From Fibrobacteria bacterium (lineage in GTDB: Bacteria > Fibrobacterota > Fibrobacteria > UBA11236), in contig JAYTHY010000042.1 in the NCBI GenBank assembly GCA_043732185.1, positions 32,624-96,623 on the forward strand: a stretch of 64,000 nucleotides of DNA, given 5' to 3'. Made by a program: the position numbers and the translations under genes. Positions 1-20,409 of the stretch are shown piece by piece. The stretch's first letter is position 1. Each line of letters opens with the position of its first letter. Under the pieces are notes generated by a model, which ran no database searches, was not told the DNA's origin, and worked only from the letters and a program-made list of their open reading frames with translations.

Positions 1-1
1 G

Positions 2-118
2 GTCCTGGAATCCCTAAACGTCTCCGTCGAGGACTCCAAAATCATGGTGGATATCAAATACCGATTGGCCGGAACCGGTGACTCGCGTATGCTGCGCTTC
101 CAACACAAAGGAACTTGA
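2..118 (+). CDS. 3' end of probable GPW/gp25-family baseplate protein (partial, runs off window start)
   Basis: Frame 2 is open from the edge (VLESLNVSVEDSKIMVDIKYRLAGTGDSRMLRFQHKGT*, TGA 116-118). The beta-strand pattern fits a gp25 C-terminus, and it lies directly upstream of a baseplate J-like gene. Confidence 0.6.
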   Translation, partial: VLESLNVSVEDSKIMVDIKYRLAGTGDSRMLRFQHKGT

Positions 119-126
119 CAGGTAAA

Positions 127-2796
127 ATGTTTAGCGAAATCGAAAAACCCCTGCGGGAACTGGCATTAAGTGAGCCGCTGATGGCGCGTGCCCGGCTGAT
201 GACCGGTGTCGTCCCTGCAAATGCGCCCAATGGCATCAAACTTGTGCGCGTCCTTTCGGTTGACAACCTCAAGAATGAAGCGTTGCTGGAAATGCATTTC
301 TTCAATCTGAATCGACTGGCGGATATCGTTGCGGCCTATGCTGTGGATCGATCCGTGGCGAAAAAGATTTTTCCGATTTCGGGAGGATCGCGCATACGTG
401 CCGGAGCGGCCTTAGGGCAGGTACAAGTGGATGCCGCACCTTTACCCGCGCCCGCATCGATCGTCCTACCGTCCCCGACTGTGCCTGTGTTGGTCCTGCG
501 AGTGGCACCCATCGGAGATTATTCCACCTACACCATCGGGATAAGTGCGCTGCAAGCCTCCGGATGGGTTTTTGACCCGCTGTTCGCGGAAATTGGTTTC
601 AAATTCCGGCCAGGCTGCTTCAACACCAATTGCGCACCCGGGTGGGACATGGCCATGCCGCCGTTGTCGGAGCCTTCCATCGATTATTTGGCAAAGGATT
701 ATGGATCCTTTCGTAAGACCATGATCGCTGCCATGATGGAGCGCGTTCCTGGATGGGAGCCAACTAGCGAAGGCGATCTCGATATGGTCCTGGCCGAACT
801 GTTCAGTGTGGCAGCCGATGAATTAAGCGACTTTCAAGATCGAGTGATGAACGAAGCCTACCTCGCATCCTCCCGTAAGCGCGTTTCCATCGCCAGGCAT
901 GCGCGATTAATGGATTACCATATTCATCAGGGGAACCAGGCGTCCACCTGGCTCGCGCTTGAGATCCTCCACTTTACCGGGCCAACCCAATCGTTCCAGC
1001 TCAAGGAAGGACTCAAAGTTTGGGCGGGTGAATCCAATGCCACCACAGGAACGGAAATCGATACCTCTGTGCATTTCGTTTCCAGGCATGCAACCAAAAC
1101 CGTTCATCAATATTTGAACAGCCTTGGACTCTACACTTGGAGCAATTCCATCACTACGCTCACAGCGGGGAGCACGCGGGCGGATGTAAAGGTATTTCAA
1201 AAGTATTACCTGGACGACACTGCAGGCGCCATTCCGGATTCCACAGAATCCGCCGCGAAGGCAGTCCAAGATCTGATCCGGAACGGCAAAGTCAAGCACC
1301 TGCTTATTCAAGAGCACCTAAACCCGGAAACGGGATTTTTTGCCGGTCGCGATCCCAATAAACGACAATTGCTAAACCTTATTTCCGGCCATGATTTGGC
1401 TACTGCCGCCACCGCGCTCCAAGATCCGGTTACCGGCGAATGGTTCATCCGCGTCCGCTGGGAAAAAAAAGATGCGTTACGGCGTGATTATTGTTTTCGG
1501 GTTGAATGTCCTGCAACGCACGCGGGCACGGCCATAGGGCCGGTCGACAACATTTCTCTTTTCCATGGAAATTTGATCGAAGTTTTTCACGGGAAGGAAG
1601 GCGCGGCGCTTTTCAAAAACCCCGGCGAAATTCTGGGAGAAACCGAGCCGCTCCAATTTCATTATGAGCGAACCCGCTGGGGCGCGTTGTGCCGTTTGCC
1701 AGATGCGCCTCTGTTGTATCGCTATTCAGAGCCGGGCGGTGATGCCCCTCCGGTTTCCACTTTGGACCTCCAAATCAAGGACCCGGCACTGGGAACAGCC
1801 ATACCTTGGTATGAAGTGCCCAGCTTCATTCATAGCGATGATTCCGCCAAGGGAGGGGATCATTTTGTCGTGGAAACGGATGAAGCCAAGCGCAGCGTGA
1901 TCCGTTTTGGGAATGGACGGAATGGCATGGAATTGTCCGACACGGCGGAAGTCACGGTCAAATACCAGTTTGGAGAACCCGGAGAAGGCAATGTCGGCGC
2001 GGACAGCATCCTCTATTTCGATGCTGCCTCTGTGTCAGTGGATCCAAATATTCCTGTGCTTAACGTGTATAGCTGCTGGAATCCCTTCGATGTGACTAAC
2101 GGCCGGGACCGGGAGCCTGTGGTGGAGATTCTCCGCCGGGTTCCGGAGGCCTATCGCCAACGGCAGCTTAGAGCCGTAACCCTGGCCGATTATGTTGCAT
2201 GGGCTGAAGGTATAGAAGGTGTTTCTCGCGCGGCCGCTAAATACGCATGGACCGGCAGCTGGCGAACCGTGCGCATCACAATAGATCCCATCGGTACCAA
2301 TGTGCTTTCCGATAGTTTGCGGAAACAAGTCGAGGCGGAGTTAAATGCCATCCGATTGATCGGCGAGGACATCGAAGTGCGTCCACCTCGATTTGTGCCT
2401 CTGGAAATAAAAGTTGCCGTGTGCGCGACTCCTGAGGTTTGGCCGGAGGATATCCAGTTTGTTCTTGAGCAAGAGTTTTCTGACGGATGGACACCCGATG
2501 GCCGCATGGGATTTTTCCATCCCGATTTATGGACGTTTGGGCAGGCGCTGCATGCCAGCCAAATCATTGGTCGGGCGATGTTGGTAAGTGGGGTGGAACA
2601 TTTCCTGGCCAAAAAAGTGGGCCCGACAAGTACCGGACCCTTGATCAGCGTTTCGATCAAGCGTTGGAATTCGCCTTTTCCGCCGGTAGAATCGCTTACC
2701 CAGTTGGATCACAATGAAATCATCATGGTCCAAAACGATCCGGATCATATGGAGTTCGGCACAATCTCCTTCGAAATCAAGGGAGGCAGGCGATGA
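127..2796 (+). CDS. eCIS baseplate assembly protein 1 (baseplate J/gp6-like)
   Basis: Motifs IDYLAKDYGSFRKTMI..VPGW...DLDMVLAELFS..ADELSDFQDRVMNEAYL, IRFGNGRNG, GNVGADSI, RAVTLADY..WTGSWRTVRITID. ATG 127 preferred over TTG 115. Confidence 0.85.
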   Translation: MFSEIEKPLRELALSEPLMARARLMTGVVPANAPNGIKLVRVLSVDNLKNEALLEMHFFNLNRLADIVAAYAVDRSVAKKIFPISGGSRIRAGAALGQVQVDAAPLPAPASIVLPSPTVPVLVLRVAPIGDYSTYTIGISALQASGWVFDPLFAEIGFKFRPGCFNTNCAPGWDMAMPPLSEPSIDYLAKDYGSFRKTMIAAMMERVPGWEPTSEGDLDMVLAELFSVAADELSDFQDRVMNEAYLASSRKRVSIARHARLMDYHIHQGNQASTWLALEILHFTGPTQSFQLKEGLKVWAGESNATTGTEIDTSVHFVSRHATKTVHQYLNSLGLYTWSNSITTLTAGSTRADVKVFQKYYLDDTAGAIPDSTESAAKAVQDLIRNGKVKHLLIQEHLNPETGFFAGRDPNKRQLLNLISGHDLATAATALQDPVTGEWFIRVRWEKKDALRRDYCFRVECPATHAGTAIGPVDNISLFHGNLIEVFHGKEGAALFKNPGEILGETEPLQFHYERTRWGALCRLPDAPLLYRYSEPGGDAPPVSTLDLQIKDPALGTAIPWYEVPSFIHSDDSAKGGDHFVVETDEAKRSVIRFGNGRNGMELSDTAEVTVKYQFGEPGEGNVGADSILYFDAASVSVDPNIPVLNVYSCWNPFDVTNGRDREPVVEILRRVPEAYRQRQLRAVTLADYVAWAEGIEGVSRAAAKYAWTGSWRTVRITIDPIGTNVLSDSLRKQVEAELNAIRLIGEDIEVRPPRFVPLEIKVAVCATPEVWPEDIQFVLEQEFSDGWTPDGRMGFFHPDLWTFGQALHASQIIGRAMLVSGVEHFLAKKVGPTSTGPLISVSIKRWNSPFPPVESLTQLDHNEIIMVQNDPDHMEFGTISFEIKGGRR

Positions 2797-5700
2797 GCGA
2801 TGTCGATAATGGCTGTGCCAACGAATGCGCGCTGCCCTTGCGGTTTCCGCAGCGGCCCGGGGAAAACCAGTTTGTGGCGCATGGCGCAGGATGTTCCTGC
2901 TGCCAGCCTGGGGCGAGCCTCACTTCCGACAATCGACCCGCCTTGCCGCATTTTAATTACCGTATCGGTACCTATGGAAGTATTCGCGAATGGCTCCTTC
3001 ACCAGATAAACCAGGCGCCAAACCTGCGGAGATGGACCCATCGCTCGCCGGATGATCCTGGTATCGCTTTGCTGGAAGGCGCAGCCATACTGGGTGACAT
3101 CCTCACATTCTATCAAGACACCTATGCCAACGAGGCTTATTTAAGAACCGCCAAATGGCGGGAAAGCATATCGGATCTGGTTCGACTGTTTGGATACAGG
3201 CTGTCCCCGGCCATTGGTGGTAAGGCTGTATTCGCATTCGAGATCAAAAAAGATGAGCCTGTGACGATACCCGCCGGGTTTCCTCTCAAGGCGTCTCTGG
3301 AAGGAGTGGATGCGCCCGCTGTCTTTGAAACCAACATAGAGTCGATTGCCTATCCCTGGCTCAGTCGCTTCAATTTGTTCCGGCCATTGGTGGACACGAC
3401 TTTCGACGCGGAATTCGAAATCGAAATTCCGGAACAGCACCTTTCATTTGTGGAGATCAAGATTGGGGAACGACTGATTCTCGGTGAAAGTGAATCTGTC
3501 TGGAGCAACCGGTCCTTGGAGCTGGAGAACGCGGACATGTATTTCGTCGAGGCCATTCGCGAATTGCACGGCACAAAAATATACCGGGTGAAAGGCAAGT
3601 TGAAGGATTGGTCGCCAAATAAAAACGTGTTTGCTTTGCGGATCGGTCGCACCTTTCATCATTTTGGACATAACGGCCCCGCCAAGATTATAAACTCTGC
3701 AAAACCCATCAAATCAATTTCCGCGGTGACGGTGGGATCCGGTTCAGGTTCGTCCAAAACCGTGAGCTCTTCGGAAATTCCCTACTTAAGTGTTCCTTTC
3801 ACAAGGCCCGTTACGGATGCGTCCGAGTACTATTCTGATTCCGCTTTGAGTCCCCCGGTGCGATACAGCGACTTTCCATTGGAGATGGAAGTCCAGGATC
3901 TGATTGCAGGGGGACCGGTAGTCATCCAGGCCCGATTCGCTTTCCCCGGCATCCGCAATGTTTCGGAATATTCTGAAGCCAAGACACTGGTTCGTACACT
4001 GGAAAAAGTCGAACCCATGACCATGACCTGGGGCGGGCTCAGCGAATCGATAACCCGAATTCGCATCGAGGAACGTATTTCCGATGCTGGGTTCTTGAAT
4101 ACCATTCCCGCCAATTTGTCCGTGGTGGCCGGGATGGAAGCGAGCCAAGCTGATACAGACGAGGAGAACGCTCGTGGCCTACTCGAAAGGGCCAATGCAG
4201 CGGCGGCTGCCGCCAAAGACGCAGCCGATGCCGCAGCCAAGGACGAGATCAGGGCCAAAGCGGAAGCCGCTGACCTAGCCGCCCGCGCCGATGCTGCGAT
4301 CAACAAGGCTGCGGTTTTGACTTTGGCTTATTCGGTTGCGGCCGCTGCGTTGAAAGACGACACAACCGATGCCATGACTAAAATAGCCGCCCAAAAAGCG
4401 GTTGACGCTTTGAATGCCGCCAATACATCTCAGCGTTCAACGAATGCTGCTGCCCTTGATGCTCAGAACCATCGTAACTTTGCGGTTCACGCTAAAGATG
4501 TAACGGTAGGGGCTGATATCGCTGCGGCAATTGGTGTTGCGATCTTGGATCCGATTTGTGCTCCAATTGTTGCCGGAGTATCGATTGTGGCCACAACCCT
4601 AGCGGCCAATTCCGCCAATCAGGCAGAGTCCGTTTTGCACAATGTTAATGAGGCAAAAAAGGACGTTGACCTGGCGCAAATTGCCACGTCTGTTGCAAAA
4701 GTTGCAGCTGATAATGCTGCCAGTGCCGCCGCCGCCGATGCAGACGCGACGCGACGCGCAGAAGAGGCGAAGCAGGAGGCAAATAAAGCTAAGGAAGATG
4801 CTGACAAAGCAGTCGAAAAAGCGCTAAAGGCAAAGCAGGCAGCCCATGAAGCTGAGCGGATTGCCGAAGAGAGGGCCGCGCGGGCACACATTACTGCCAA
4901 GGCTGTCGAAGTTGCTGAGGAGGACGTTGCAGCCGCGGTTGATATCGCCCTCGAAAAAAATCGTATCAAGAATACCCGGATGTACATTGGGGACGCTTTG
5001 TTCCACGAAGTGACAAGTCCAAAGTTGCAAGTTAAAGCCGCCCGTTTGGAAACCTCAGAGGTTAAAGGCGCTACACTCAATTATTTCGGCACCGCGGATC
5101 AAGTGAAAGCGCTCTCCGGCCGCCAAATTCTACTGGAAAAAAAAGGTTCTCAGCCCGGTCTTTTAACCGTCGAACCCGTACTGGAAAATTTTCCCGCCAG
5201 CACCAAGGATTTTGCCATCCTGCGGAAGATCAGTCTATCAAGCGCGGTCGCATACGCCGATTTCCCGAACCTAAAACCTGTGACTACTGTTTTCGGAAAT
5301 GTAGTCGAGGCCGATGAAGGCAAAACACAACCTGAAGTGGTGATCGGAAGCGGGGATGCCACGCGCGTATTTCAGAATTTTCAGGTTCCCAAAGCTCCGC
5401 TTACCTATCACATTGTCACGGAAAACAGCCCATCCGAAACACCAGCAGCGGAGGTCTACGTAGGTGGAAAGCTCTGGTCTAAGGTGGACAGCTTTTTCGG
5501 ACACGCGTCAGAGGAGCGAATCTACATCGTCCGGGAGGATGCTGCGGGAAATAGTTGGGTGCAATTCGGTGATGGAAAAACGGGCGCGCGCCTGCCCAGT
5601 GGCTCGGATAACGTGACTGTTATCTATCGAACAGGAGCCGGAGCTTATGGAGCGTTGAAAGACGACTCCAAGGTTCAGGCTTTGGCCAAGCTCAAAAACT

Positions 5701-6416
5701 TGGACAAGGTGCAAATGCCTGGTGTAGCTACGGGCGGAGCGCCACCGGAGAACGGGGAGAATGCGCGGGAGGCCGCGCCGGGCAAGATTCAAAGCCTTGG
5801 CCGTATCGTCAGCCTAAAGGATTTTGAAGCGGAGGCGGCGGCTATTCCCGGCGTGACTTTAGCTTCTGCCGCTTGGGGGCTCGATGATAATGTTCCCGCC
5901 GTTATCGTGACGGTGCTCATGGACACCGGACGTAGCGCCGAAATTCAGGCTGTCCGCGATATTCTTGTTGCCTACAATTCTTCGCGTGGTGCAGGACGCA
6001 CGCCGATTCTCGTGAAGGAAGGCAAGCGAATGTATGTTACCCTCACCATTCGTTATGCGCTTCAAGCGGGCTTCCGCGCCGATTTAACCGAACCCATAAT
6101 ACGCGGTGCTTTGGGTGGGACTGCCGCATCCCCGGACAAGCAGGAAACTTCGGCGGGACTCTTCGGAATCAAGCGACGGCGTTTTGGCGGCCGCGAATAC
6201 GCCTCGTCCGTCGAAGGAACGATCCAAAATGTTCAGGGTGTTCTTTGGGCAAAGGCCATCACCTTTACAGCTCTAGGGGAGGCGGACGATCCGGAACCGC
6301 TGGCATTGCCGTCTGTAGCCGTCTTCTCCCCCATGGTTCCCTGTGATGCCGGTCACATTCTCAGCCTGTATGACAAGCATTTGTTCTTGACCGCGGTCAA
6401 GTCAAAGGAAAGCTGA
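2793..6416 (+). CDS. eCIS baseplate assembly protein 2 (baseplate J-like) with long Ala-rich coiled-coil insertion
   Basis: DNRPALPHFNYRIGTY, DDPGIALLE..AILGDILTFYQDTYANEAYLRTA, VQFGDGKTGARLPSG, RIVSLKDFE. ATGA overlap with the upstream gene. Confidence 0.85.
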   Translation: MSDVDNGCANECALPLRFPQRPGENQFVAHGAGCSCCQPGASLTSDNRPALPHFNYRIGTYGSIREWLLHQINQAPNLRRWTHRSPDDPGIALLEGAAILGDILTFYQDTYANEAYLRTAKWRESISDLVRLFGYRLSPAIGGKAVFAFEIKKDEPVTIPAGFPLKASLEGVDAPAVFETNIESIAYPWLSRFNLFRPLVDTTFDAEFEIEIPEQHLSFVEIKIGERLILGESESVWSNRSLELENADMYFVEAIRELHGTKIYRVKGKLKDWSPNKNVFALRIGRTFHHFGHNGPAKIINSAKPIKSISAVTVGSGSGSSKTVSSSEIPYLSVPFTRPVTDASEYYSDSALSPPVRYSDFPLEMEVQDLIAGGPVVIQARFAFPGIRNVSEYSEAKTLVRTLEKVEPMTMTWGGLSESITRIRIEERISDAGFLNTIPANLSVVAGMEASQADTDEENARGLLERANAAAAAAKDAADAAAKDEIRAKAEAADLAARADAAINKAAVLTLAYSVAAAALKDDTTDAMTKIAAQKAVDALNAANTSQRSTNAAALDAQNHRNFAVHAKDVTVGADIAAAIGVAILDPICAPIVAGVSIVATTLAANSANQAESVLHNVNEAKKDVDLAQIATSVAKVAADNAASAAAADADATRRAEEAKQEANKAKEDADKAVEKALKAKQAAHEAERIAEERAARAHITAKAVEVAEEDVAAAVDIALEKNRIKNTRMYIGDALFHEVTSPKLQVKAARLETSEVKGATLNYFGTADQVKALSGRQILLEKKGSQPGLLTVEPVLENFPASTKDFAILRKISLSSAVAYADFPNLKPVTTVFGNVVEADEGKTQPEVVIGSGDATRVFQNFQVPKAPLTYHIVTENSPSETPAAEVYVGGKLWSKVDSFFGHASEERIYIVREDAAGNSWVQFGDGKTGARLPSGSDNVTVIYRTGAGAYGALKDDSKVQALAKLKNLDKVQMPGVATGGAPPENGENAREAAPGKIQSLGRIVSLKDFEAEAAAIPGVTLASAAWGLDDNVPAVIVTVLMDTGRSAEIQAVRDILVAYNSSRGAGRTPILVKEGKRMYVTLTIRYALQAGFRADLTEPIIRGALGGTAASPDKQETSAGLFGIKRRRFGGREYASSVEGTIQNVQGVLWAKAITFTALGEADDPEPLALPSVAVFSPMVPCDAGHILSLYDKHLFLTAVKSKES

Positions 6417-9061: not shown

Positions 9062-12000
9062 ATGAGAGGCGATTTTTCCACTTGGAACAAAGATGGATCT
9101 CGAAATTTTAGAGGCACCCTGCATCAACAAGGCCGGGTCCTGATCGATAGGGATTGGAACGCGCAAACCGAGATCAACATTGAGTGGCAGCAAACTGCCG
9201 GACGCGATGCATTCGGTGCGGGTGTGGCCGCAGTTCCAGCGGAACTTCCGCAGGGCTTTAAGGTCACGGGCGCAAAAATAGTTGGCAGTGATGTTTTGGT
9301 GGCCGTAAGCAAAGGGCGGGTTTGGGCGGACGGCCTGCTAGTAGAATCTCCCAAGGATATTTCCAATCGCATCGCCAGTTACCTGAACCTGCCCCCAAAG
9401 ACATTGCCCAACCCGAATGCCGCTCCACGTGATGCCGTGATTCTGGAGTCCTGGCTGGAGGAGTTGAATCCATTCCAGGCCACGTCGCTGCTGATTGAAC
9501 CCGCGCTTGGCGGTGTCGATACTACGGAACGTGTTCAAACCGCTTTTCGTTTTCGACTCTTCCGAATGGAGTCTGGCGACACGTGCGATTCGATTTTGCC
9601 AAAACTTGCGGACGATTTTTCGGCCAAAGGAAAACTTACCGTTAAACTAGATCCCTTCACGGATACCGGCGGTGATTGCCCGGTGGTGGAAAGCGGCGGG
9701 TATACGGGATTCGAGCATCGACTCTACCGCATTGAAATAGCCGAGACCGCCAAAGCCGGCGCCTGGTTCAAATGGTCTCAGTTCAACGGCGGATTGGTGG
9801 GCACAGGGGATTTCGACGCGCCAAGTAGAAAGGTTTCCATTCACGGGAACCTGAATGCGATTCTCCATTGCGGCGTAAGCGAGTTTTATTTCGAAGCCTT
9901 GGATTTGGATGACGCAACCGGCTACTGGCGCGTGGCCTATGCCGCCAAGGCCACTCTGGGACCGGATAACAAGCTCGCCTTGCCTACCCCGGCGCACCCG
10001 GACGAATTTCTAGGTCCCTATCCACCTGCTCCTGTCACGGGCAAGCGCTTTTTCCGACTCTGGAACGGCATTGAACCCATTGCCGATTATGTCACGGCCG
10101 AAAAAGATTTGCCAGACCTGGTTGGAATAAAATTGAAATTCGATACCACAGTAGCTGCAAAGTATACACCATCCGATTTCTGGACCTTCCAGGTTCGAGC
10201 CGGTGAGATTGGAAATCCCGCAGTGTTGGTAGGCGATCCGGTTACCTTTGTAGGTGCGCCGCCGCAAGGCATTCTTTATCACCGCGTGCCATTGGCAGAA
10301 ATCATGTGGTCTGCCACCGGGGTGGACATCGAAGACTGTCGCCGCATTTTTCTGCCGCTTACCAAACTCAAAACCTGCTGCACGTATCGCGTAGGTGACG
10401 GTGTCCATTCCCACGGAGAATTCACACGGATCCAGGATGCGATCAACGCCCTCCCCAAATCGGAGGGGGGCGAAGTATGCATTTTGCCTGGTGTCTACAC
10501 AGAAAACATCGTCCTGGACGCGCCGCATAATCGCAACATCCTCCTGAAAGGTTGCGGCAAACGCACGGTCCTCCGCTCCGGCACGAAGGATCCGGTTATC
10601 CGCGTCCAATCGGGACAAAACATCCATATCGAATCGCTAGCGGTGGAAGCGAATGAAGATGGAATAGGGATTTTACTCAACGGCGAAGAAAAAACCGCGA
10701 GCAACGGAAACCGCGAAAAATATCTGAAAGATATCACCCTCTCCGAACTCTTCATAACGGCGGCAAAAGGTTCTGCCATCAAGGCTTTTGTTGCCCAATG
10801 CTTGACTTTAAATGATTCCGTGATCCAGATCAAGGATGCGGAAACGCGGGAGATTGCGGTCTATTTGGCGGGTGATGACATGCTCGTAAAAGGCTGCGAA
10901 ATCCGAGTTGTTACCGAGCAACTGGCCAAACTCGGCGAAGCTACATCCAACGATCTGAATCATCTGTATCCCGCCAAAGGCGCACCAGGTGGGTTACAGA
11001 TAGCCGGTGGGTCCGAACGCGTCCGTATTCTCGACAACTTGATCGTCAGTGGTACGCGAAACGGAATTACTTTGGGCAGCGTGGATCTGATCCGGCAAGG
11101 CCATTTGATCCGGAATCACATCCCCATCCACTGGATAGGCGAGCTCGAGGATTGCTGTAAGCCGGACGATGGCTTTGTGGACGACGGAAACACAACCGAA
11201 GATGGCAGCATTCCGGTAGCCGGACCACCGCTTGAAGATATTTTGATTCAGGCCAATCGTATTTTCAATATGGGCCGCAACGGGATTGGCGTGGTCACGT
11301 TCTTCAGTCTCGGCGACAAAACCGATCCGAAAGATGTGTCGGCCATCGGGAAGAATACTGAGAAAGGCGTGGTTTCCGTTTCCAAGTTGGTCATCTGCGA
11401 GAACCGGATCGAGCGCTGCTTGAATTCCAATCTCCAGGAAATTCCGGAAAAGTTCGGATCCCTAATGGGCTACGGCGGCATTTCCCTGGCGGATACCGAG
11501 GCCTTCGTGGTCCGGGATAATTTCATCATCGACAACGGTCCTGATTTTCTGGAACCGATTTGCGGGATTTTTGTGCTATCGGGTCAAGGTATCGAGATAT
11601 CGCGCAATCATATTCTGAACAACGGCATGCGAAACCAAAAGGAGTTGAACGCGAAAACCGTAAAGCGGGGGCCCCGTGGCGGCATTTACATAGCCATGGC
11701 GCGAACCTCGGGAATCGACGTCATTCCTGGTTCGGATCGGAGTATGTATTTCGCCAGCGGGTTTCCAGCGGCCAAGATCCATGACAATTGTGTCACCGTT
11801 CCGCTGGGTAGAAGCCTGACCCTTATTGCAAATGGACCCGTGTCCGTCATCGGCAATCGGTTCACGAGCTTTGGTCTACGCCCCATCAATTTCCTTTCGT
11901 TGATCCTATCGGTGGCCACGCAAGGCAGTCTGAAGGCCGAATTGTTATGGGACCTCATTGACTTGATTGCCGGAAACATCTTCATTTTCAATCAGGGAAT

Positions 12001-12580
12001 GCTGGCTCTCATCCCAGCTATGGATCATGGATTTAAGAATATCCAATCAGGCACAGCTGCAAATGCCCAGGTGGAAAAAACTCCCGTTACCCTGAACGCT
12101 GTATCACTTCCAAAAAACCAGGTCCGTTATTTTGCTACGGGTACCGTTCTATTCACCAACAATCAATGTCACCAGAACCTGGCCACACCGGCGCCATCCT
12201 TTGCATTATCATCGATATGTATCGCCAGTTTGGATGATGTAGGTTTTCACACGAATCAATGCGATTGCGATCTGGATCAGGACTTTTTGATGGTCAATGC
12301 CTTTATATTTGGAATGACAGCAAGAATCAGTGATAACCGGTTTCGAGAATCTCTGATGAAAGTATTTTTTTCCGCCGCGACATTCGGAATGCAAGTTATC
12401 ACTACAGACAACGAATCCATCCATTGCCTACTTGTACTGGGCACCGCCTACCTAAAACGACACAACCTGGTTCTGCTTGAAATCGGAACCATCAATGGCG
12501 ACATAACCAAGGTGGATGGTCCGCATGTTTGCGACAATATTATGAAGTTGTTCAAAAATTTTGGCATCCCTAATAAATAA
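9062..12580 (+). CDS. DUF6519-like protein with C-terminal right-handed parallel beta-helix (putative tail fibre/spike)
   Basis: N-terminal MRGDFS...QQGRVLIDRDWN, GRVWADGLL, EPALGGVDTTERVQ, GYTGFEHRLYRIEI, FKWSQFNG. Then IQDAINALP..GGEVCILPGVY and repeated I.x.N.x.I beta-helix rungs. Confidence 0.75.
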   Translation: MRGDFSTWNKDGSRNFRGTLHQQGRVLIDRDWNAQTEINIEWQQTAGRDAFGAGVAAVPAELPQGFKVTGAKIVGSDVLVAVSKGRVWADGLLVESPKDISNRIASYLNLPPKTLPNPNAAPRDAVILESWLEELNPFQATSLLIEPALGGVDTTERVQTAFRFRLFRMESGDTCDSILPKLADDFSAKGKLTVKLDPFTDTGGDCPVVESGGYTGFEHRLYRIEIAETAKAGAWFKWSQFNGGLVGTGDFDAPSRKVSIHGNLNAILHCGVSEFYFEALDLDDATGYWRVAYAAKATLGPDNKLALPTPAHPDEFLGPYPPAPVTGKRFFRLWNGIEPIADYVTAEKDLPDLVGIKLKFDTTVAAKYTPSDFWTFQVRAGEIGNPAVLVGDPVTFVGAPPQGILYHRVPLAEIMWSATGVDIEDCRRIFLPLTKLKTCCTYRVGDGVHSHGEFTRIQDAINALPKSEGGEVCILPGVYTENIVLDAPHNRNILLKGCGKRTVLRSGTKDPVIRVQSGQNIHIESLAVEANEDGIGILLNGEEKTASNGNREKYLKDITLSELFITAAKGSAIKAFVAQCLTLNDSVIQIKDAETREIAVYLAGDDMLVKGCEIRVVTEQLAKLGEATSNDLNHLYPAKGAPGGLQIAGGSERVRILDNLIVSGTRNGITLGSVDLIRQGHLIRNHIPIHWIGELEDCCKPDDGFVDDGNTTEDGSIPVAGPPLEDILIQANRIFNMGRNGIGVVTFFSLGDKTDPKDVSAIGKNTEKGVVSVSKLVICENRIERCLNSNLQEIPEKFGSLMGYGGISLADTEAFVVRDNFIIDNGPDFLEPICGIFVLSGQGIEISRNHILNNGMRNQKELNAKTVKRGPRGGIYIAMARTSGIDVIPGSDRSMYFASGFPAAKIHDNCVTVPLGRSLTLIANGPVSVIGNRFTSFGLRPINFLSLILSVATQGSLKAELLWDLIDLIAGNIFIFNQGMLALIPAMDHGFKNIQSGTAANAQVEKTPVTLNAVSLPKNQVRYFATGTVLFTNNQCHQNLATPAPSFALSSICIASLDDVGFHTNQCDCDLDQDFLMVNAFIFGMTARISDNRFRESLMKVFFSAATFGMQVITTDNESIHCLLVLGTAYLKRHNLVLLEIGTINGDITKVDGPHVCDNIMKLFKNFGIPNK

Positions 12581-12598: not shown

Positions 12599-13288
12599 AT
12601 GAATATGGAAGCTAGACAAAAAATTACCGTCGAACAGGCTGCTTCGGAACTGGATCGGAGCATGGAGAGCCTGGATGAATTGCGCGCCGCGCACCTAGGG
12701 GAATCGCTCAAAGTAGAAGGCGCCAAAGGGAATGTGTATGTCCGCGAACACGCGCGTTTGCTAGGGAAATACGGTAAGGGCCATCCTCGCACTTTGGATA
12801 TAGAGGCGCGAATGAAAGCCAATCAGATGTACCAGGCAGCTATCGTTACAGAATACCACAACGCGTCAACGCCGCGCCCCCAGCCCAGCAAGGGTTGGGC
12901 TTTGGACGGATTCGTCCGCTCAACCGATGGCCGGCCAGTGCATGGGGTGACGGTAGGTTTATACGATCGGGCGAATATGTGGCAACAGAGTTTTGGACAT
13001 GCCTGTACGGATAAGGACGGATATTTTTCCCTACGGGTTGATACGCTTCCGGAAAAACCGACCAGCCCATTATTCGTGCGGGCCGCCAAGGAAAGGCGGA
13101 TCCTCCCATCCCGTGATTTGCCCGTGCTCCCCAAAGCCGGTGCCACCAAAAGAGTGGAAATTATTTTGGGGGAACAGAATGATAAGAAAGAGGATTGCCT
13201 GCCGCCGGACGGGCAAATTACTCCGATGTCTACGCCTCCTGAGATCCAAGAAAACGAAAAGCCCGCTACCAAGAAAAATCGCAAATGA
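12599..13288 (+). CDS. eCIS accessory protein: N-terminal helical region plus carboxypeptidase-regulatory/transthyretin-like beta-sandwich
   Basis: LDGFVRSTDGRPVHGVTVGLYD...ACTDKDGYFSL pattern. GAGG-like SD upstream; sits in the operon. Confidence 0.6.
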   Translation: MNMEARQKITVEQAASELDRSMESLDELRAAHLGESLKVEGAKGNVYVREHARLLGKYGKGHPRTLDIEARMKANQMYQAAIVTEYHNASTPRPQPSKGWALDGFVRSTDGRPVHGVTVGLYDRANMWQQSFGHACTDKDGYFSLRVDTLPEKPTSPLFVRAAKERRILPSRDLPVLPKAGATKRVEIILGEQNDKKEDCLPPDGQITPMSTPPEIQENEKPATKKNRK

Positions 13289-13298
13289 ATCCGGAGCC

Positions 13299-15662
13299 AT
13301 GAAGACTTTTACATCGGATATACCGAAAAGAAAATTGCCGGAGACGGTGCATTCGCAGGACTGGACTGCAGAAAAATCGAGTGGCGTTCCGGAACCCTTT
13401 GGCCAAGGTCCGGTGCCTATCCTTCGCAAAGCTTCTTGTTCCTGCGGGGGCGGTTGTGCCTCCTGCCACGCATCCTCGAATGGTTTGCAGGTGTCCGAGC
13501 TTGGTGGTCCGGCTGAAATGGAAACGAGTAGGCAGAGAAATGAATGGAAGCCGCTGCCACTGGGTGTCGGGGCCTCTTCACAAAGCCCCGGGCATGTCCT
13601 TAAGGCATTGGACTCCGGCGGACAAGCACTCGATTCTCAAACCCGTAATTTTTTTGAACCGCGTCTGGGATACGATCTTAGCGGCGTTCGTGTACATACG
13701 GGCTCAAATGCCGAACACTCGGCGGCTGAGGTTAGTGCCAATGCCTACACCTTGGGCCAAAACATTGTTTTTGGAGCGGCTCGATTCGAGCCTGATACGC
13801 ATCAGGGCCGCCTCTTGCTTGGCCACGAGCTGACACATGTTGTCCAGCAAAGCAAAGCTCAGATCCATGCGCATGCATTTGAACCTGAAAATTCGCCAGC
13901 GGAACGCGAAGCCAGCACGGTAGCGAACGACATCGTTTACGGCGGCGCTCAAAATACTGTGACAGCCATTCCTAAGGGAATTCCTCGCGACGTGGGTTTT
14001 GCTGCACGAGGGCCTATTCCGGATGCGTATGGCCTAGGATACAATGAGATCCTAACTCGTGGCGGTCAGGGTTCGATGGCTGCTGTGTTTGACTTAGCAT
14101 CCCTCGAGACGGCATCGATGGATGCGGATCTGGGGAAATTTGACGCGATGACTCCGGAGAAGAAAAGCGCAATCCTGGCGCTCGAGCCTTACGCAGTAGG
14201 ATCCGCATGCGCACGCTGGTTCAATCGGCTGCGCGCGCACGCGAATGTGACAACTGCTTTGTCAACGATGCCGAAGTTGACGCCCGAACAAGAACGGGAA
14301 GGTGAGCTCGCATACTACCAGTCGACACGAGCGTCACAGTTAGATTCCGCTTACAGGCAATTCCTTGTAGAGCTTCCGCAACTTTCACCGGACCAGATTT
14401 ATGACCGGTGGAAGTCGGACCGGACGCGTTTTATAAAGATCGCATCGACTCCGAATCATGGCCTCCCTCCGGAGCAGATGATCCTAATCTATCGGCTCTA
14501 CTGGGGCGATTTCCGAGAAAGAGCCGTCGCGAAACAAATTGACCTCAACAACCGCCGACTCGGAGCAACGGATGAATTCGATCACGCAGAGAGAGAGGAA
14601 GAATTCGCAAATGCAGCTCTTGCTGCGGTTGTCGACGCGCATGAAAACCTTTTGGCAGCGCAGGCAATCGGTAGGAGCTTGACACTGGACGTACTAACCG
14701 AATACGCCCTCAACTCGGTCGGCTTTCGACAGGGGTTGGCACTACTCGCTATGGCCATTGGATCGGTAGGCCAGGTTCGTGGAACCGGCTCGCCTCGTCC
14801 CACAAAATCGAGCGCTACACCCGCAACATCACAGCCCGTTGCAAGTTCCGCGCGCCAGCAAGGGCCACCGAATTTGGAAGTGATTCAGGGCGGCGGTCAA
14901 GGACGCGCCGCGCCGTCGGTTAACACGACACCGGCCGTGAACCAGCCGGTTGCCTATACAGGGCAAGGTGGAGCTGCTCCTAACCTTGCCCTCGATCCCG
15001 TTGTCGCGCCAGTCGTGGCACCACGCCACCTGCAAAGCGTTCCAATGCCTGCGCCAGTTCCAGTCCAAGCTCCCGTGATTATGCCCGCACCCAGCCCATT
15101 AGCGCCTACTGTTGCACCTATCTCTGCCATTTCGCCCTTTGCAGCCATCGGAATAGGGGTGGCCTCTCGAATCGGCACATCACAACTTCCTCGCCCTGAT
15201 GTGGACACGGATTTGGATGAACCGGTAAAGCGTGGCCAGTGCACGTACCAATCGATTCCCCAGCAATTCGGGAGGTTCCCGTGCCACGCGGCGTACGCTA
15301 CAAGTCTTAGTGGTGTTTCGCGAGAAGTTCGAGTCAAAAATCCCATCGAGCAGTCGGTTGATTTCGATGCCATGAATCACGGCGGTATGCTCTTCGAAGT
15401 GAAAACGGGATACCGATGGTTGCCATTCATGAAGGACGAGAAGCGCAAAAATGAAATCATAACCCGGTTCTGGCTGCAAGCGGTGAATCAGCTGATGGTG
15501 GCTGGAAGTTGCGGCCACCCCTTGAAGTGGTATTTCAACGACCCGTATGCTGCCAGTTTTTTCGGAGCAGTGAATTCGCCCTATCCTAAATACTTCGGTG
15601 CCCCGTTGCCTGTTGAGGTTTGGTACGTTCCTTATGCTTGCGACCAGGATAGTGATGGATAG
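13299..15662 (+). CDS. DUF4157 (eCIS core) effector 1 with C-terminal restriction-endonuclease-fold (Tox-REase-5-like) toxin
   Basis: RKASCSCGGGCASC leader. Core RNFFEPRLGYDLSGVRVHT..ANAYTLGQNIVF..LLGHELTHVVQQ. C-terminal VDFDA..LFEVKTGY..QAVNQ..LKWYF. Start moved to ATG 13299 to avoid overlapping the upstream gene. Confidence 0.75.
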   Translation: MKTFTSDIPKRKLPETVHSQDWTAEKSSGVPEPFGQGPVPILRKASCSCGGGCASCHASSNGLQVSELGGPAEMETSRQRNEWKPLPLGVGASSQSPGHVLKALDSGGQALDSQTRNFFEPRLGYDLSGVRVHTGSNAEHSAAEVSANAYTLGQNIVFGAARFEPDTHQGRLLLGHELTHVVQQSKAQIHAHAFEPENSPAEREASTVANDIVYGGAQNTVTAIPKGIPRDVGFAARGPIPDAYGLGYNEILTRGGQGSMAAVFDLASLETASMDADLGKFDAMTPEKKSAILALEPYAVGSACARWFNRLRAHANVTTALSTMPKLTPEQEREGELAYYQSTRASQLDSAYRQFLVELPQLSPDQIYDRWKSDRTRFIKIASTPNHGLPPEQMILIYRLYWGDFRERAVAKQIDLNNRRLGATDEFDHAEREEEFANAALAAVVDAHENLLAAQAIGRSLTLDVLTEYALNSVGFRQGLALLAMAIGSVGQVRGTGSPRPTKSSATPATSQPVASSARQQGPPNLEVIQGGGQGRAAPSVNTTPAVNQPVAYTGQGGAAPNLALDPVVAPVVAPRHLQSVPMPAPVPVQAPVIMPAPSPLAPTVAPISAISPFAAIGIGVASRIGTSQLPRPDVDTDLDEPVKRGQCTYQSIPQQFGRFPCHAAYATSLSGVSREVRVKNPIEQSVDFDAMNHGGMLFEVKTGYRWLPFMKDEKRKNEIITRFWLQAVNQLMVAGSCGHPLKWYFNDPYAASFFGAVNSPYPKYFGAPLPVEVWYVPYACDQDSDG

Positions 15663-15692
15663 GTTCACTTGGAGGGGAGAGGTAAACGGCCT

Positions 15693-17171: not shown

Positions 17172-17187
17172 CTGGAGAGACCCTACA

Positions 17188-20100: not shown

Positions 20101-20409
20101 GGTAACCTAAAGGGGTTGCCCAAATCAAAGGTATTGACGGACATCGAGGCCGGCGAGATGGGGCATTGGACCAGTCACCCTCAGTATGATCGGCTCGTCA
20201 AAGACGAGCTCGACACGGTCCAAAAAGCGTTGGAAAAGGAGTTCAAGTCGCTCGATAAGGTGCCCAAACAGCGTTTGCTTGATGCACTGAAAAGCGTCGA
20301 AGACAAGCTCCGAAAACTGATCGAGGACGGCAAGGCTCCCATTAAGGACGGCCATCTAGCAGAGGATGAGCCAAGGGATTCCAATGATGAATCGGAATCC
20401 TATGCTTGA
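17188..20409 (+). CDS. DUF4157 effector 3 with C-terminal AHH-family HNH nuclease
   Basis: RKAACACGGGCPAC leader, core FFEPRIGYDLSSVRLHT..ARAYTLGNDIVF..LLAHELAHV, C-terminal SVHHLIP...HPL...YSLDNAGNLKGLP...HWTSHPQYDRLV. ATG 17188 follows a GGAG SD. Confidence 0.8.
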   Translation: MERLAASNKTDPARNKTRGAAPIPENVDTTYGLGGFPDIIYRKAACACGGGCPACLANSGSLRVSQPGDQTEVEADKVADEIMRAPTLHRKALSTTGDASSKAADHVQKAVQAGGRPLEDRTRQFFEPRIGYDLSSVRLHTGESAAQSAHALQARAYTLGNDIVFGENEYTEDSESGKRLLAHELAHVTGNHSGIHRDPKPDAVVDPVEVRLEGLPTDGLKLMAKAERTGANIIDAEMVMNGDLVLPEFGVHDNAGKVWAWINVPGKNALDVPVNRAFAKARGFNYPILHGFIEFKYLGNITIPITIYAKPPEKVEPPAPVSVEPPKRDKPSPPEAQPAKDLISQATSWSILSKKDLGKKLLDYADGGDFSTPDSVLEELWSNNRDDVSFEMTLAASDEQLAGMAETADGRKFLDRLYDELTSGSADEKEQAQAERILMAKAGRIDPKKFMNAEKSAMVIPFSGSGFTKFSSASLSVHRMDNGNIWVRSHMKTEHWKDAKLSPEHYAIMYSGIEMDPDTVVGVYLYDEGGKIIYMPALYLLQLSNTDTTKVGMMAGEAFVTGLTFGLGGEAVAVGETANASRAAIWGARAVNYLKWTDRAATAVAAASTLVNDHRGWIIEKFGDDGRWILKEWAKVDRILMIYGLARGAVALGQMGYGLRASWKNWRTAASKVDDLAADEKKIVDELSSNVEQTLEEIETAQAKAGMGAKAPTANVAGEADAAADEINVLNKNDTVSTAGEVEGAGAEVVDLDQYRKQQAAKKAAKQSAPIQQLKKTGTDDTVAVAQDSTIAANDNAEIVDAPSTSTNTSTSTRKSAGTATVTPIKPRVEVDLSEFPNGADLTKDKWIGKKWKPGDDLPKGYVPLKDGGIRRGPGFREKNFVPLEVKDGKLAVGTAGERISNPSVMNRNYKSAVGQELRAKNPGWTEAKLEAELIKEVEKNSVHHLIPDNVVQDHPLAQAATKAGYSLDNAGNLKGLPKSKVLTDIEAGEMGHWTSHPQYDRLVKDELDTVQKALEKEFKSLDKVPKQRLLDALKSVEDKLRKLIEDGKAPIKDGHLAEDEPRDSNDESESYA

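Follow-up and report, generated by a model that had tools for sequence, protein, structure and literature searches.

The second of two gp6/Cis11-like baseplate wedge proteins encoded in a contractile injection system operon of a Fibrobacteria bacterium was found to contain a long helical insert, predicted to fold as an antiparallel hairpin, whose distal half is, by alignment, a swapped module: deeply diverged types of it sit on near-identical backbones. We tentatively read this arm as a modular stalk that presents a contact tip to the target surface. The sequence analysed, referred to below as the window, is a single stretch of 64,000 nucleotides, and the genes that concern us here are the following.

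115..2796, + strand: Cis11a, the first gp6/Cis11-like paralogue, 893 aa (Pfam Baseplate_J 4.5e-09; TIGR02243 4.1e-43)
2793..6416, + strand: P0001 (Cis11b), the second gp6/Cis11-like baseplate wedge protein and host of the insert, an ORF of 1207 aa
6418..9048, + strand: Cis12-like baseplate protein, 876 aa (weak Pfam Tail_P2_I match, 0.0043, under its cut-off)
9062..12580, + strand: tail fibre with a DUF6519 (eBAP5) anchor and a right-handed beta-helix (Pfam DUF6519 3.3e-09, Beta_helix 7.6e-06)
12993..20409, + strand: three putative cargo or effector proteins with eCIS_core (DUF4157; Pfam 2.3e-28, 4.9e-31, 4.8e-28), mechanically listed as ORFs 12993..15662, 15669..17171 and 17077..20409, all on the + strand

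The operon is a complete contractile injection system, made up of sheath, tube, Pvc16_N cap, AAA ATPase, spike, two Cis11 paralogues, Cis12/Tail_P2_I, fibre and eCIS_core cargo, the third eCIS_core protein carrying an AHH nuclease domain (Pfam 1e-11). A 126-aa ORF occupies the gp25 position; the gp25-like and PAAR labels are given by position, without a family match. Both in the window and in locus L003 the P0001 gene sits between the gp25-like, PAAR and spike genes and the Cis12/Tail_P2_I and fibre genes, and related loci of four phyla have this gene order too, up to the point where each contig ends. The Cis12-like gene was seen in 8 of 10 related loci, the other two contigs stopping short of that position. 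DUF6519 has been described as eBAP5, a baseplate-anchor domain in the tail fibres of extracellular contractile injection systems (PMC12923769). When scored in those loci whose DNA extends to that point, the fibre gene was present with the insert (the window and L006, the Pseudaquabacterium terrae S2 locus of protein P0007) as well as without it (L007, L008, L010-L013). The preliminary description of this DNA had suggested that the arm might grip a membrane in place of a tail fibre, and this suggestion is unsupported because an eBAP5 beta-helix fibre gene lies two genes downstream of P0001. A scan of the fibre protein for hydrophobicity only placed its best 19-residue Kyte-Doolittle (KD19) window, 1.59, at aa 966 of 1172.

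P0001 missed the curated family cut-offs for gp6/Cis11, yet its similarity to the family was significant: it matched TIGR02243 at 5e-33 with 114.5 bits (curated cut-off 155.8) and the baseplate wedge family PHROG 219 at 2.3e-18, while no Pfam family was found at E<=0.01. Its similarity to Cis11a was weak and lay in the N-terminal part, and a profile search of PDB sequences aligned its C-terminal part only. Foldseek matched the P0001 model to the baseplate of the Streptomyces contractile injection system (9gtp_1G, 1.2e-15), to 9vzk_T (9.9e-15), to T4 gp6 (5iv5_A, 2e-12) and also to a phage P1 baseplate protein, and VIA gave Z 13.5 against the T4 gp6 chain 5hx2_D (390 aligned) and Z 12.6 against 9gtp_1G (422 aligned). 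The middle and C-terminal domains of P0001 are thus predicted to have the gp6-like fold; the AlphaFold2 model also contains N-terminal helices at residues 54-126, the kind of element that in gp6/Cis11 proteins builds the core bundle of the wedge together with Cis12 and the other Cis11. Two copies of afp11 have been reported in eCIS subtypes IIa and IIc (PMC6899500) and in haloarchaeal clusters (PMC11566945), and the solved CIS-Sc wedge is described as two Cis11 and one Cis12 (PMC12237407). We infer that, of the two gp6 positions in a single wedge, Cis11a takes one and Cis11b the other.

Within P0001 the insert and its parts lie as follows.

4110..4994, + strand: whole helical hairpin insert, aa 440-734 (AlphaFold2 helices; matches to antiparallel stalks)
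4110..4349, + strand: proximal arm 1, conserved stalk, aa 440-519 (pLDDT 85-94 over most of it; 95% identity to P0002)
4350..4742, + strand: exchangeable distal module including the tip, aa ~520-650 (28% identity to P0002)
4350..4373, + strand: joint motif LKDDTTDA, aa 520-527, at which the helix breaks and the exchanged module has its left border
4518..4607, + strand: hydrophobic tip IAAAIGVAILDPICAPIVAGVSIVATTLAA, aa 576-605 (KD19 maximum 2.15)
4545..4559, + strand: apex turn LDPIC, aa 585-589, the only part between the arms that the insert-only model leaves out of helix
4725..4748, + strand: motif AAAADADA, aa 645-652, conserved in the alignments, at which the exchanged module has its right border
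4743..4994, + strand: heptad-periodic proximal arm 2, aa 651-734 (pLDDT 80-94; 94% identity to P0002)

The segment first noticed (4134-4975) corresponds to aa 448-728 and its tip (4518-4607) to aa 576-605, exactly as had been described. The composition of the segment sets it apart from the rest of the protein. Alanine makes up 35% of arm 1 (aa 448-575), 30% of the tip and 31% of arm 2 (aa 606-728), while the flanks have 8-12%. The two longest runs free of proline and glycine in P0001 both lie in the insert, one of 137 aa that begins at 596 and one of 110 aa that begins at 463; outside the insert the longest such run is 32 aa and Pro plus Gly amount to 14.4%, and the probability that a given stretch of 100 aa lacks both residues is ~2e-7. 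The Ala-rich helical arms flanking a hydrophobic turn were therefore confirmed. Given the insert alone, AlphaFold2 put 440-518, 524-584 and 590-734 into helix and made 585-589 a turn; in full-length P0001 the helices were 440-520, 525-571 and 608-724. The five insert-only models differed widely (mean pLDDT 75.2, 71.5, 59.8, 55.4 and 53.7). The insert model aligned with the PrgA stalk 6z9l_A (VIA Z 16.7, rmsd 4.3 for 296 aligned residues in model 1..300) and with the hairpin of a chemoreceptor (TMq 0.61, 301 columns), and the P0001 model with the R-domain hairpin of colicin E3 (Z 12.2 over model 441..717), although VIA itself remarks that Z under about 13 is common for long coiled-coil folds. 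Since these matches cover both arms, the geometry should be that of an antiparallel hairpin, and the modelling supports a long two-helix hairpin with ~145 residues per arm, as had been proposed.

The structure matches of the insert are generic long coiled coils, and Foldseek with the insert alone returned no match at E<=0.001. An arrangement as a coiled coil agreed with the sequence in one arm and not in the other: the period of ~3.5 observed in arm 2 was matched by 1 of 500 and 0 of 1000 shuffles, whereas that of arm 1 was matched by 160 of 500 and 124-636 of 1000 and was not significant. The alpha helix rises 1.5 A per residue, so ~145 residues give an arm of ~21 nm. The arm is slightly longer than the 18-19 nm first estimated because the model places the tip itself in helix. 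Self-association of the hairpin, put to a complex prediction with three copies, got no answer (score 0.00, mark 0.42), which counts neither for it nor against it. The insert as a known domain was considered and found no support: Pfam held nothing for the region at E<=0.01, the ESM Atlas gave no usable match, and the weak PHROGs match of arm 2 to the tail-fibre family phrog_4242 (1.6e-4, 22 bits) was read as compositional.

The ten best KD19 windows of P0001 all fall inside the tip, and their maximum, 2.15, is the highest among the 21 operon-region proteins scanned, the next being 1.69. A hydrophobic-Asp-Pro-hydrophobic pattern recurs at the apex in homologues, with the Asp-Pro semi-conserved, and the insert midpoint is the most hydrophobic and least charged 25-aa window in 13 of the 14 insert-bearing homologues. 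The preliminary description had seen in this apex a membrane-inserting tip, a view that the results do not establish. LDPIC splits the 30-aa hydrophobic stretch into helix ends of ~9 and ~16 residues, with Asp586 in the turn, and these ends are too short for a double crossing of the bilayer; a bitopic transmembrane hairpin has two uncharged helices of ~18-20 or more residues joined by a short turn, and the tip does not. KD19 reached >=1.6 at the tip in just 7 of the 14 insert-bearing homologues, and the hydrophobic-minus-charged score of the tip, 11, lies within the range of 8-14 covered by ordinary segments in 100 insert-less homologues. The pLDDT at the tip is low (27-38 in the full-length model, 51-54 in the insert-only model). 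On the modelled lengths of the helix ends (~9-16 residues), a monotopic dip into one leaflet could occur.

The exchange became apparent when P0001 was compared with P0002, its closest relative, from the same genus (G008/L005). The two proteins are 98% identical in the N part, 95% in the first proximal region, 28% in the distal region, 94% in the second proximal region and 97% in the C part; at the DNA level, identity is 35-58% within about 4380-4740 and mostly 93-100% in the flanks. The two distal modules match each other over 19 aa only. That of P0001 is nearest to those of P0003, P0005 and P0007 (39-41%, 66-76 bits) and that of P0002 to those of P0028 and P0006 (34-36%, 67-70 bits), so that module types do not track the backbone, the evidence on these types coming from 14 proteins. 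The exchanged part is bounded by the two motifs. LKDDTTDA lies 67 residues before the apex and AAAADADA 58 after it, so that they stand roughly opposite each other in the hairpin; no row of the 14-row alignment departs from the lysine and the two aspartates of the former (insert-construct residues K86, D87 and D91), and AlphaFold2 broke the helix at 519-523 in both the full-length and the insert-only models. Such a pattern of exchange is known for the receptor-binding parts of fibres and bacteriocins. It could also have come about through relaxed constraint on an exposed part together with recombination at conserved joint motifs.

We found no silent or alternative cassettes: tblastn with all 14 inserts on the same genome matched the gene alone. 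Contigs from metagenome runs X3-X6 carried P0001's own module type at 95-99% identity, a type that recurs at this identity in runs from three studies, and no alternative joints were seen in these contigs, which lose rare variants. Breaks between contigs were noted, and in X4 also two alleles of 128 bp at 4475-4602. Of the 40 differences listed from natural populations in four other metagenome runs, 31 were synonymous, the variants at the tip (I580V, V582I and A583V) were all apolar, and the motifs are invariant across relatives that share 29-66% identity over the insert. These comparisons show the insert gene to be, by its substitutions, under purifying selection.

Among the 120 homologues listed, 14 carry the hairpin and 104 have <=60 aa at the insertion site; the suspicion that the arm is no standard feature of Baseplate_J proteins was borne out by these counts and by the empty Pfam search, and the alignment identified it as a lineage-restricted insertion. 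In 150 family representatives (the best at 50% clustering, of which 14 longer rows were checked for inserts) a long helical insert was found in two, P0004 with the hairpin type and P0025 with another type; the 14 other longer homologues checked (957-1164 aa) contained no long Ala-rich, Pro/Gly-free insert. Six changes were needed on the backbone tree to explain the distribution of the insert, and an AU test with 44 rows rejected a single clade of insert bearers (p=0.0026). By these alignments and trees the hairpin is an accessory, lineage-restricted insert with a patchy distribution. Shorter inserts occur at the same site in P0075 and P0077, and the site also bears unrelated short or acidic inserts. 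An insert-only search of 5.8 billion proteins, limited to proteins of 663-2113 aa sharing exact words with the query, returned P0002 as the sole match. Six other homologues were found to have a different Ala-rich insert of ~420 aa at another site, with a Gly/Pro-containing hydrophobic stretch (KD19 1.42-2.16). Homology of the two insert types was considered and rejected (HHalign probability 5.5%).

The fold class, the insert status of the hairpin, the modular exchange, the purifying selection and the hydrophobic apex were established by the analysis, and they form the ground for our proposal on the role of the arm, a modular stalk presenting a target-surface contact tip. The accessory module would project from a surface loop in the beta-rich middle region of P0001 and, presumably, outward. 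The stalk would be an Ala-rich antiparallel two-helix coiled coil of ~21 nm, built from a conserved proximal half (~80 residues per arm), a conserved joint in which LKDDxTDA stands opposite AAAADADA, and an exchangeable distal half (~65 residues per arm) that ends in an uncharged Ala/Ile/Val cap around the Asp-Pro turn. It would keep the contact element at a distance from the baseplate, presumably with one arm per wedge and six per particle, and the cap would touch the surface of the target cell, be it a receptor or a membrane's outer face, adding a second, fibre-independent step of binding or triggering. The contact-stalk proposal has its difficulties: the locus already has a fibre, which makes a second binder unnecessary, most family members function without the arm, and a receptor-binding surface that is soluble would not usually be a hydrophobic cap almost free of charge; such a cap would suit a lipid or a protein partner equally. 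A bolder form of the proposal, possible but in our judgement doubtful, is a second fibre-independent targeting device in which the outer half of the 21-nm stalk and its lipid- or receptor-seeking cap are traded as a cassette from strain to strain, the device having arisen at least twice at two sites of this protein and the cap, which would grip or sense the envelope of the target, feeding the firing trigger via the iris-forming Cis11 ring.

The hydrophobic apex may also be read as a producer-membrane anchor, modelled on T6SS-like or thylakoid-anchored systems, in which the cap dips into the producer's cytoplasmic or other membrane and the machine is held perpendicular at a distance set by the 21-nm stalk. 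The apex is the most hydrophobic 19-residue window of the 21 operon-region proteins scanned (2.15 vs 1.69), among which there is no obvious transmembrane segment fit for an anchor, the most hydrophobic 25-aa window lies at the midpoint in 13 of 14 homologues, and helix ends of ~9-16 residues could be buried in one leaflet. Precedents have been described in the tCIS Cis12 extension and the Cis13 C-terminal transmembrane helix (PMC8894136) and in the Cis11 cage region that touches the membrane in T6SSiv (PMC8894135) and haloarchaeal T6SS (PMC11566945). However, the apex does not have the length of a transmembrane hairpin, it places an Asp-Pro at its deepest point, and half of the tips (7 of 14) stay below a KD19 of 1.6. 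A tether to the producer membrane is disfavoured because the distal module is exchanged: a role at the cell's own membrane offers no obvious reason for diverged modules on 97-98% identical backbones. The locus moreover keeps a beta-helix tail fibre and eCIS_core cargo, typical of released eCIS, the arm is missing at the site in 104 of the 120 listed relatives, and the other operon genes are present with or without the arm wherever the DNA of related loci extends. We consider such an anchor unlikely.

The same cap would be most simply satisfied by burial against protein, and the six arms might form a helical cage around or below the spike, or dock fibres or neighbouring particles, the caps serving as protein-protein contacts. 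This structural role would agree with a tip whose hydrophobic score equals that of ordinary buried segments, with nearest full-length matches (chemoreceptor, Smc/MukB arms) that act as bundles or paired arms, and with the spike cages that Cis11 inserts are reported to form in AlgoCIS, tCIS, MACs and T6SSiv (PMC8894135, PMC8894136). Yet the known cages are beta-rich carbohydrate-binding modules and not helices, and a fixed partner should not tolerate module types at ~25-35% identity on one backbone unless the partner co-varies, the insert-bearing loci with flanks being two; a strut of this kind therefore seems improbable to us. It is very unlikely that the insert is a tolerated decoration without a specific role, a recombination-prone, low-complexity Ala-rich coil in a permissive loop. 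Most relatives lack the insert, others have unrelated short or acidic inserts at the same site, and the insert sequence alone finds just P0002, with Pfam and the Atlas empty, all of which such a coil would explain. It would not explain the predominance of synonymous differences (31/40) and the conservative changes at the tip, the motifs that stay invariant at 29-66% insert identity, the hydrophobic midpoint cap retained in 13 of 14, the second, non-homologous insert of like kind at another site, or the fact that one module type, 95-99% identical, persists across the runs of three studies.

The choice of target and the firing cue of contractile injection systems are understood in few models only; tail fibres are the determinants known so far, joined in AlgoCIS by a cage of sugar-binding modules. 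New here are, on alignment evidence, the distal half of the hairpin as a swapped module and the six homologues with a non-homologous Ala-rich insert and a hydrophobic stretch elsewhere. If the contact-stalk reading is true, a helical, cassette-swappable wedge arm would add a new class to the elements that set specificity or trigger firing, metagenomes could be searched for such elements with a simple sequence marker (LKDDxTDA and AAAADADA on either side of a hydrophobic Asp-Pro apex), and a naturally modular site would join the evolutionary hotspots of these machines. If the arm is a membrane anchor instead, it would mark one more independent way in which released systems became cell-attached, here in Fibrobacterota, where none has been studied.

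The likeness of the arm to systems outside this family is one of form. Colicins E2, E3, E9 and Ia and the PrgA stalk have a long antiparallel two-helix stalk with a binding element at the far end, and the R domains of colicins E2/E3/E9 matched the insert with VIA Z 11.0-12.2 over 122-138 residues, a likeness of fold only; the matched colicin entry 2ysu is titled as a complex with BtuB. In the action proposed for it, the P0001 stalk resembles these R-domain hairpins, which hold out an apex that binds the receptor. No colicin chain was returned by the PDB sequence searches, and the likeness, without sequence homology, is as expected between any long coiled coils. Exchange of modules among relatives is typical of colicins, while to our knowledge their apexes are not hydrophobic caps; colicins are soluble toxins and PrgA is a surface protein, whereas P0001 belongs to a baseplate. 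The channel helices of TcA and viral fusion-peptide hairpins, whose hydrophobic tips enter membranes, likewise have an Ala/Gly/Ile/Val-rich uncharged tip on long helices, an analogy only; TcdA1 and XptA1 did not match the insert significantly (Foldseek E 0.14-0.4, VIA Z 9.4), and nothing in P0001 points to oligomeric pore formation.

The anchors of tCIS and Streptomyces CisA, like the tip, contain hydrophobic segments, which are described as tying the baseplate to the producer membrane and as consisting of a helix at the C terminus of a fibre-like trimer, an amphipathic Cis12 helix or a separate bitopic protein. P0001, unlike these, has the internal apex of a hairpin in a Cis11 paralogue, too short for the bilayer, and no comparable transmembrane stretch was found in the 21 operon-region proteins scanned for hydrophobicity. 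P0001 shares its fold with Streptomyces CIS Cis11, T4 gp6 and the phage P1 baseplate protein, and its operon position with gp6/Cis11 (Afp11, Baseplate_J) proteins. None of the solved gp6/Cis11 relatives listed is reported to have a long helical hairpin such as that predicted in P0001, and in the literature covered no helical hairpin insert in a Cis11/Afp11-type protein was found described. A parallel is offered by Alg11 of AlgoCIS and the Cis11 of Anabaena tCIS, in which, as in P0001, a large domain is inserted in the middle of the protein. Inserts in Cis11 have been called an evolutionary hotspot, domain IV of Alg11 building the spike cage, for which binding of a secondary receptor and opening before firing are proposed (PMC8894135, PMC13314943), and the roles put forward for Cis11-type inserts include control of firing and, in T6SSiv, membrane attachment (PMC8894135, PMC13314943, PMC8894136). 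The Alg11 cage is described as beta-rich carbohydrate-binding modules, residues 278-643, which jut out at the tip of domain III (PMC8894135). The P0001 insert, unlike it, is all-helical in the models, with a hydrophobic apex and a swappable distal half, and does not have the make-up of a cage; no sequence similarity was found between the Alg11/tCIS cage inserts and the P0001 insert. The action we propose for the P0001 stalk nevertheless resembles that proposed for the spike-cage inserts of Alg11 in AlgoCIS.

The helical segment lies in P0001, a baseplate protein encoded in a complete contractile injection system (CIS) operon that begins on the contig upstream of the window (C42:32624-96623; source genome 4.46 Mb) and extends 20 kb into it. 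The operon starts with genes for the sheath, a gp19-type tube and a baseplate-hub-like protein, then a Pvc16_N cap and an AAA ATPase, and continues with a Phage_base_V spike, a 111-aa ORF and a 126-aa ORF at the gp25 position; no family matched either of these ORFs. The following genes come next:

115..2796, Cis11a, the first Baseplate_J protein, directly before P0001
2793..6416, + strand, P0001 ('Cis11b'), ORF of 1207 aa
6418..9048, protein with a weak Tail_P2_I match, after P0001
9062..12580, DUF6519 and beta-helix protein (tail fibre)
12993-20409, three eCIS_core (DUF4157) proteins in a row, with an AHH nuclease domain at the C terminus of the last

In the mechanical ORF listing, 12599..13288 overlaps 12993..15662 and 15669..17171 overlaps 17077..20409, so that the start codons there are provisional. 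Behind the fibre gene, an ORF of 229 aa (12599-13288) showed a weak CarboxypepD_reg match (4.5e-4) and had a counterpart in six of ten related loci (L007, L008, L010-L013). Just upstream of the CIS operon (locus L003), tandem paralogues of 418-419 aa (3578-4837 and 5007-6263) are 76% identical, and a 381-aa ORF (2371-3516) lies beside them, upstream of the sheath gene; Pfam matched none of the three. In the related loci examined, which come from Betaproteobacteria, Acidobacteriota and Verrucomicrobiota, the fibre and other operon genes were found wherever the DNA extends, with or without the insert.

The AlphaFold2 model of P0001 (residues 8-1207, 120 aligned sequences, mean pLDDT 77.6) was matched by Foldseek to the Streptomyces CIS baseplate protein 9gtp_1G (1.2e-15), to phage P1, Klebsiella phage KP1 and T4 gp6, and to chains of the Anabaena tCIS (7b5h_AH) and of AlgoCIS (7aeb_G); VIA Z against the 9gtp_1G and T4 gp6 chains was 12.6-13.5. 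Since TIGR02243 matched the sequence under its curated cut-off (5e-33) and a Pfam search of P0001 returned no family, we assign it to the gp6/Cis11-type wedge proteins by predicted fold and context rather than by curated sequence thresholds. Two afp11 copies are described for eCIS subtypes IIa and IIc (PMC6899500) and likewise for haloarchaeal clusters (PMC11566945), and the Streptomyces CIS wedge is described as two Cis11 and one Cis12 (PMC12237407); by analogy, Cis11a and Cis11b would occupy both Cis11 positions of one wedge. The preliminary description had suggested that the arm might act in place of a tail fibre. DUF6519 is, however, described as eBAP5, which belongs to a set of five N-terminal domains anchoring eCIS tail fibres to the baseplate and occurring downstream of Tail_P2_I genes (PMC12923769); the gene at 9062..12580 therefore gives the locus a regular fibre, and that suggestion is not supported.

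The segment originally flagged, nt 4134-4975, was recovered as aa 448-728, and its hydrophobic stretch, IAAAIGVAILDPICAPIVAGVSIVATTLAA, as aa 576-605 (nt 4518-4607). The Ala content of the segment is 30-35%, that of its flanks 8-12%. The two longest Pro/Gly-free runs of P0001 (137 and 110 aa), both within it, are far beyond chance; the longest such run elsewhere is 32 aa, and Pro plus Gly there amount to 14.4%. Helices span 440-520, 525-571 and 608-724 in the full-length model, with unconfident coil in between, and 440-518, 524-584 and 590-734 in a model of the insert only, built on an alignment of the 13 other insert-bearing homologues and broken only at 519-523 (LKDDT) and 585-589 (LDPIC). 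In the latter, pLDDT exceeded 85 over the proximal third of both arms, fell to 60-70 further out and was 51-54 around the apex, and the five insert-only models diverged (mean pLDDT 75.2 down to 53.7). Structure matches spanning both arms comprised the stalk of PrgA (296 residues aligned over model 1..300 at Z 16.7 and rmsd 4.3), the arms of Smc, MukB and cohesin, the receptor-binding hairpins of colicins E2/E9 (Z 11.0-11.6) and E3 (Z 12.2), and chemoreceptor hairpins (TMq up to 0.61 over 301 columns). These are generic coiled-coil likenesses, and Foldseek with the insert alone found no match at E<=0.001. Because the matches span both arms, we read the insert as a hairpin with antiparallel arms, which supports the first proposal in this respect. 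Heptad periodicity was clear in arm 2 and not in arm 1. The arm is indeed long, about 21 nm in the model (~145 residues per arm) rather than the 18-19 nm first estimated. A weak match of the phage tail-fibre family phrog_4242 to arm 2 (window 4599-4883, aa 603-697; E 1.6e-4, 22 bits) is probably compositional, and antisense ORFs over the insert (3830-4306, - strand, 158 aa; 4619-5080, - strand, 153 aa) most likely just reflect the GC-rich codons for Ala in the sense strand.

All ten best 19-residue Kyte-Doolittle windows of P0001 fall in the tip, whose maximum (2.15) is the highest among 21 operon-region proteins scanned (next, 1.69). The most hydrophobic and least charged 25-aa window lies at the insert midpoint (0.49-0.55) in 13 of the 14 insert bearers, the exception being P0011. 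Neither the length nor the sequence of the tips is constant; Pro and Gly occur in them, and their centre often reads hydrophobic-Asp-Pro-hydrophobic. Several features speak against taking the membrane-inserting tip of the preliminary description as a membrane-spanning element: the hydrophobic cap comprises ~9 and 16 residues either side of the turn in the insert-only model, with Asp at the apex, just 7/14 tips reach the threshold of 1.6 on the 19-residue scale, and, on a scale that leaves Ala out, its hydrophobicity does not exceed that of ordinary segments from the 100 insert-less relatives. The tip could possibly dip into one leaflet or contact a protein.

The main new result is that the distal half of the hairpin is an exchanged module. 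P0001 and its closest relative, P0002 of the same-genus genome G008, are 98% identical in the N part, 95% in proximal arm 1, 28% distally (521-650), 94% in proximal arm 2 and 97% in the C part. DNA identity is 35-58% at ~4380-4740 against mostly 93-100% outside, with the transition at 4321-4380. The borders coincide with two conserved motifs, LKDDxTDA at aa 520 and AAAADADA at aa 645, which are 67 and 58 residues away from the apex on its N- and C-terminal side; the two would therefore roughly face each other in the hairpin, making the exchanged unit a structurally complete distal half-hairpin. The two modules align to each other over 19 residues only; that of P0001 is nearest to those of P0003, P0005 and P0007 (39-41%), and that of P0002 to those of P0028 and P0006 (34-36%). 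Other pairs are similarly mosaic: P0007 and P0009 (81-89% identical in the backbone, 33% distally), and P0003 and P0007 (71-81% and 60%). No second copy or silent cassette of the insert was found in the source genome.

The stretch 3800-5400 was detected in at least 14 sediment and freshwater metagenome runs from five studies, two of which runs possibly represent the source DNA. Contigs of four of the 14 listed runs (X3-X6, three studies) carry the same module type as P0001 at 95-99% identity. Among 40 listed of their 79 differences 31 are synonymous, and the tip differs by five synonymous changes and I580V, V582I and A583V; the module is under constraint. Contigs of X3, X4 and X6 break at 4475-4602, and X4 holds two 128-bp alleles there, in the first half of the tip, with clustered, mostly synonymous differences, which hints at strain micro-diversity.

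The insert proved accessory and lineage-restricted rather than a standard Baseplate_J feature. Among 120 listed of 290 homologues (E<=0.001), its site holds 282-331 aa in 14, 91-104 aa in two and <=60 aa in 104; P0077 carries a helical-looking insert of ~85 aa there, lacking the hydrophobic turn, and P0075 an acidic one. On a backbone-column tree of all 120 (FastTree) the 14 bearers required six changes, and an AU test rejected them as one group (p=0.0026) in an IQ-TREE repeat on 44 rows, namely the 14 bearers and 30 picked from neighbouring subclades, the other 76 being omitted. Invariant residues and motifs are common to the proximal arms, and the insert therefore has a single origin, followed by repeated loss or by movement between loci through recombination. 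Among the 14 further genomes of this genus, a close P0001 orthologue was found only in G008; weaker matches within the genus occur in G004 (1.3e-80) and G012 (8.3e-5), and G016, of another genus of the family, has a 53%-identical, insert-bearing copy (P0005). Besides G008 and G016, six of the 40 relatives searched gave more distant matches; the operon is therefore patchy among kin, which fits horizontal spread of the locus.

Insertion was not restricted to this site. Six proteins of one clade (P0016, P0025, P0060, P0073, P0074 and P0079; 1333-1357 aa) carry an Ala-rich insert of ~420 aa at P0001 aa ~232-245 (window about 3486-3527), presumably helical by composition, with a Gly/Pro-containing hydrophobic stretch (19-residue Kyte-Doolittle 1.42-2.16). 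HHalign found no relation to the P0001-type insert (probability 5.5%), and this would be a second, independent solution. Out of 9181 hits at E<=0.001, the best 150 representatives at 50% clustering include just one bearer of each type, P0004 with the P0001 type and P0025 with the other. Pro-rich repetitive inserts of 95-135 aa (PPVTV, TPPQMTV among other motifs) occupy a third site, after residue 315 of P0012, in P0041, P0114, P0115 and P0119.

We tentatively favour reading the arm as an element contacting the target surface, because near-identical backbones have exchanged its outer half, purifying selection conserves each module type and the locus otherwise resembles a released, fibre-bearing eCIS. 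The stalk would hold the contact element, with arm direction, copy number and partner all presumed. Anchoring to the producer's membrane has precedents in tCIS, described as anchored through an extension of Cis12 and a transmembrane helix at the C terminus of Cis13 (PMC8894136), and in T6SSiv, described as attached through a site on a Cis11-type cage (PMC8894135, PMC13314943); beside the short cap and the fibre gene we consider it unlikely here. A strut, cage or docking role, improbable to a similar degree, recalls Alg11, whose domain IV (residues 278-643) is reported to form the spike cage from carbohydrate-binding modules, a cage for which binding to a secondary receptor and opening ahead of iris expansion are proposed (PMC8894135, PMC13314943); the module exchange is the observation to set against it. 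Cis11 inserts are described there as an evolutionary hotspot. Given the constraint on the module, we hold a tolerated decoration to be very unlikely.

In the literature on contractile injection systems that we consulted, no description of such a helical insert was found. Baseplate extensions of these systems are a known kind of insert, and the helical arm is a new form of it. Compared with the Alg11 cage, the arm of P0001 is a different solution in the same kind of protein.
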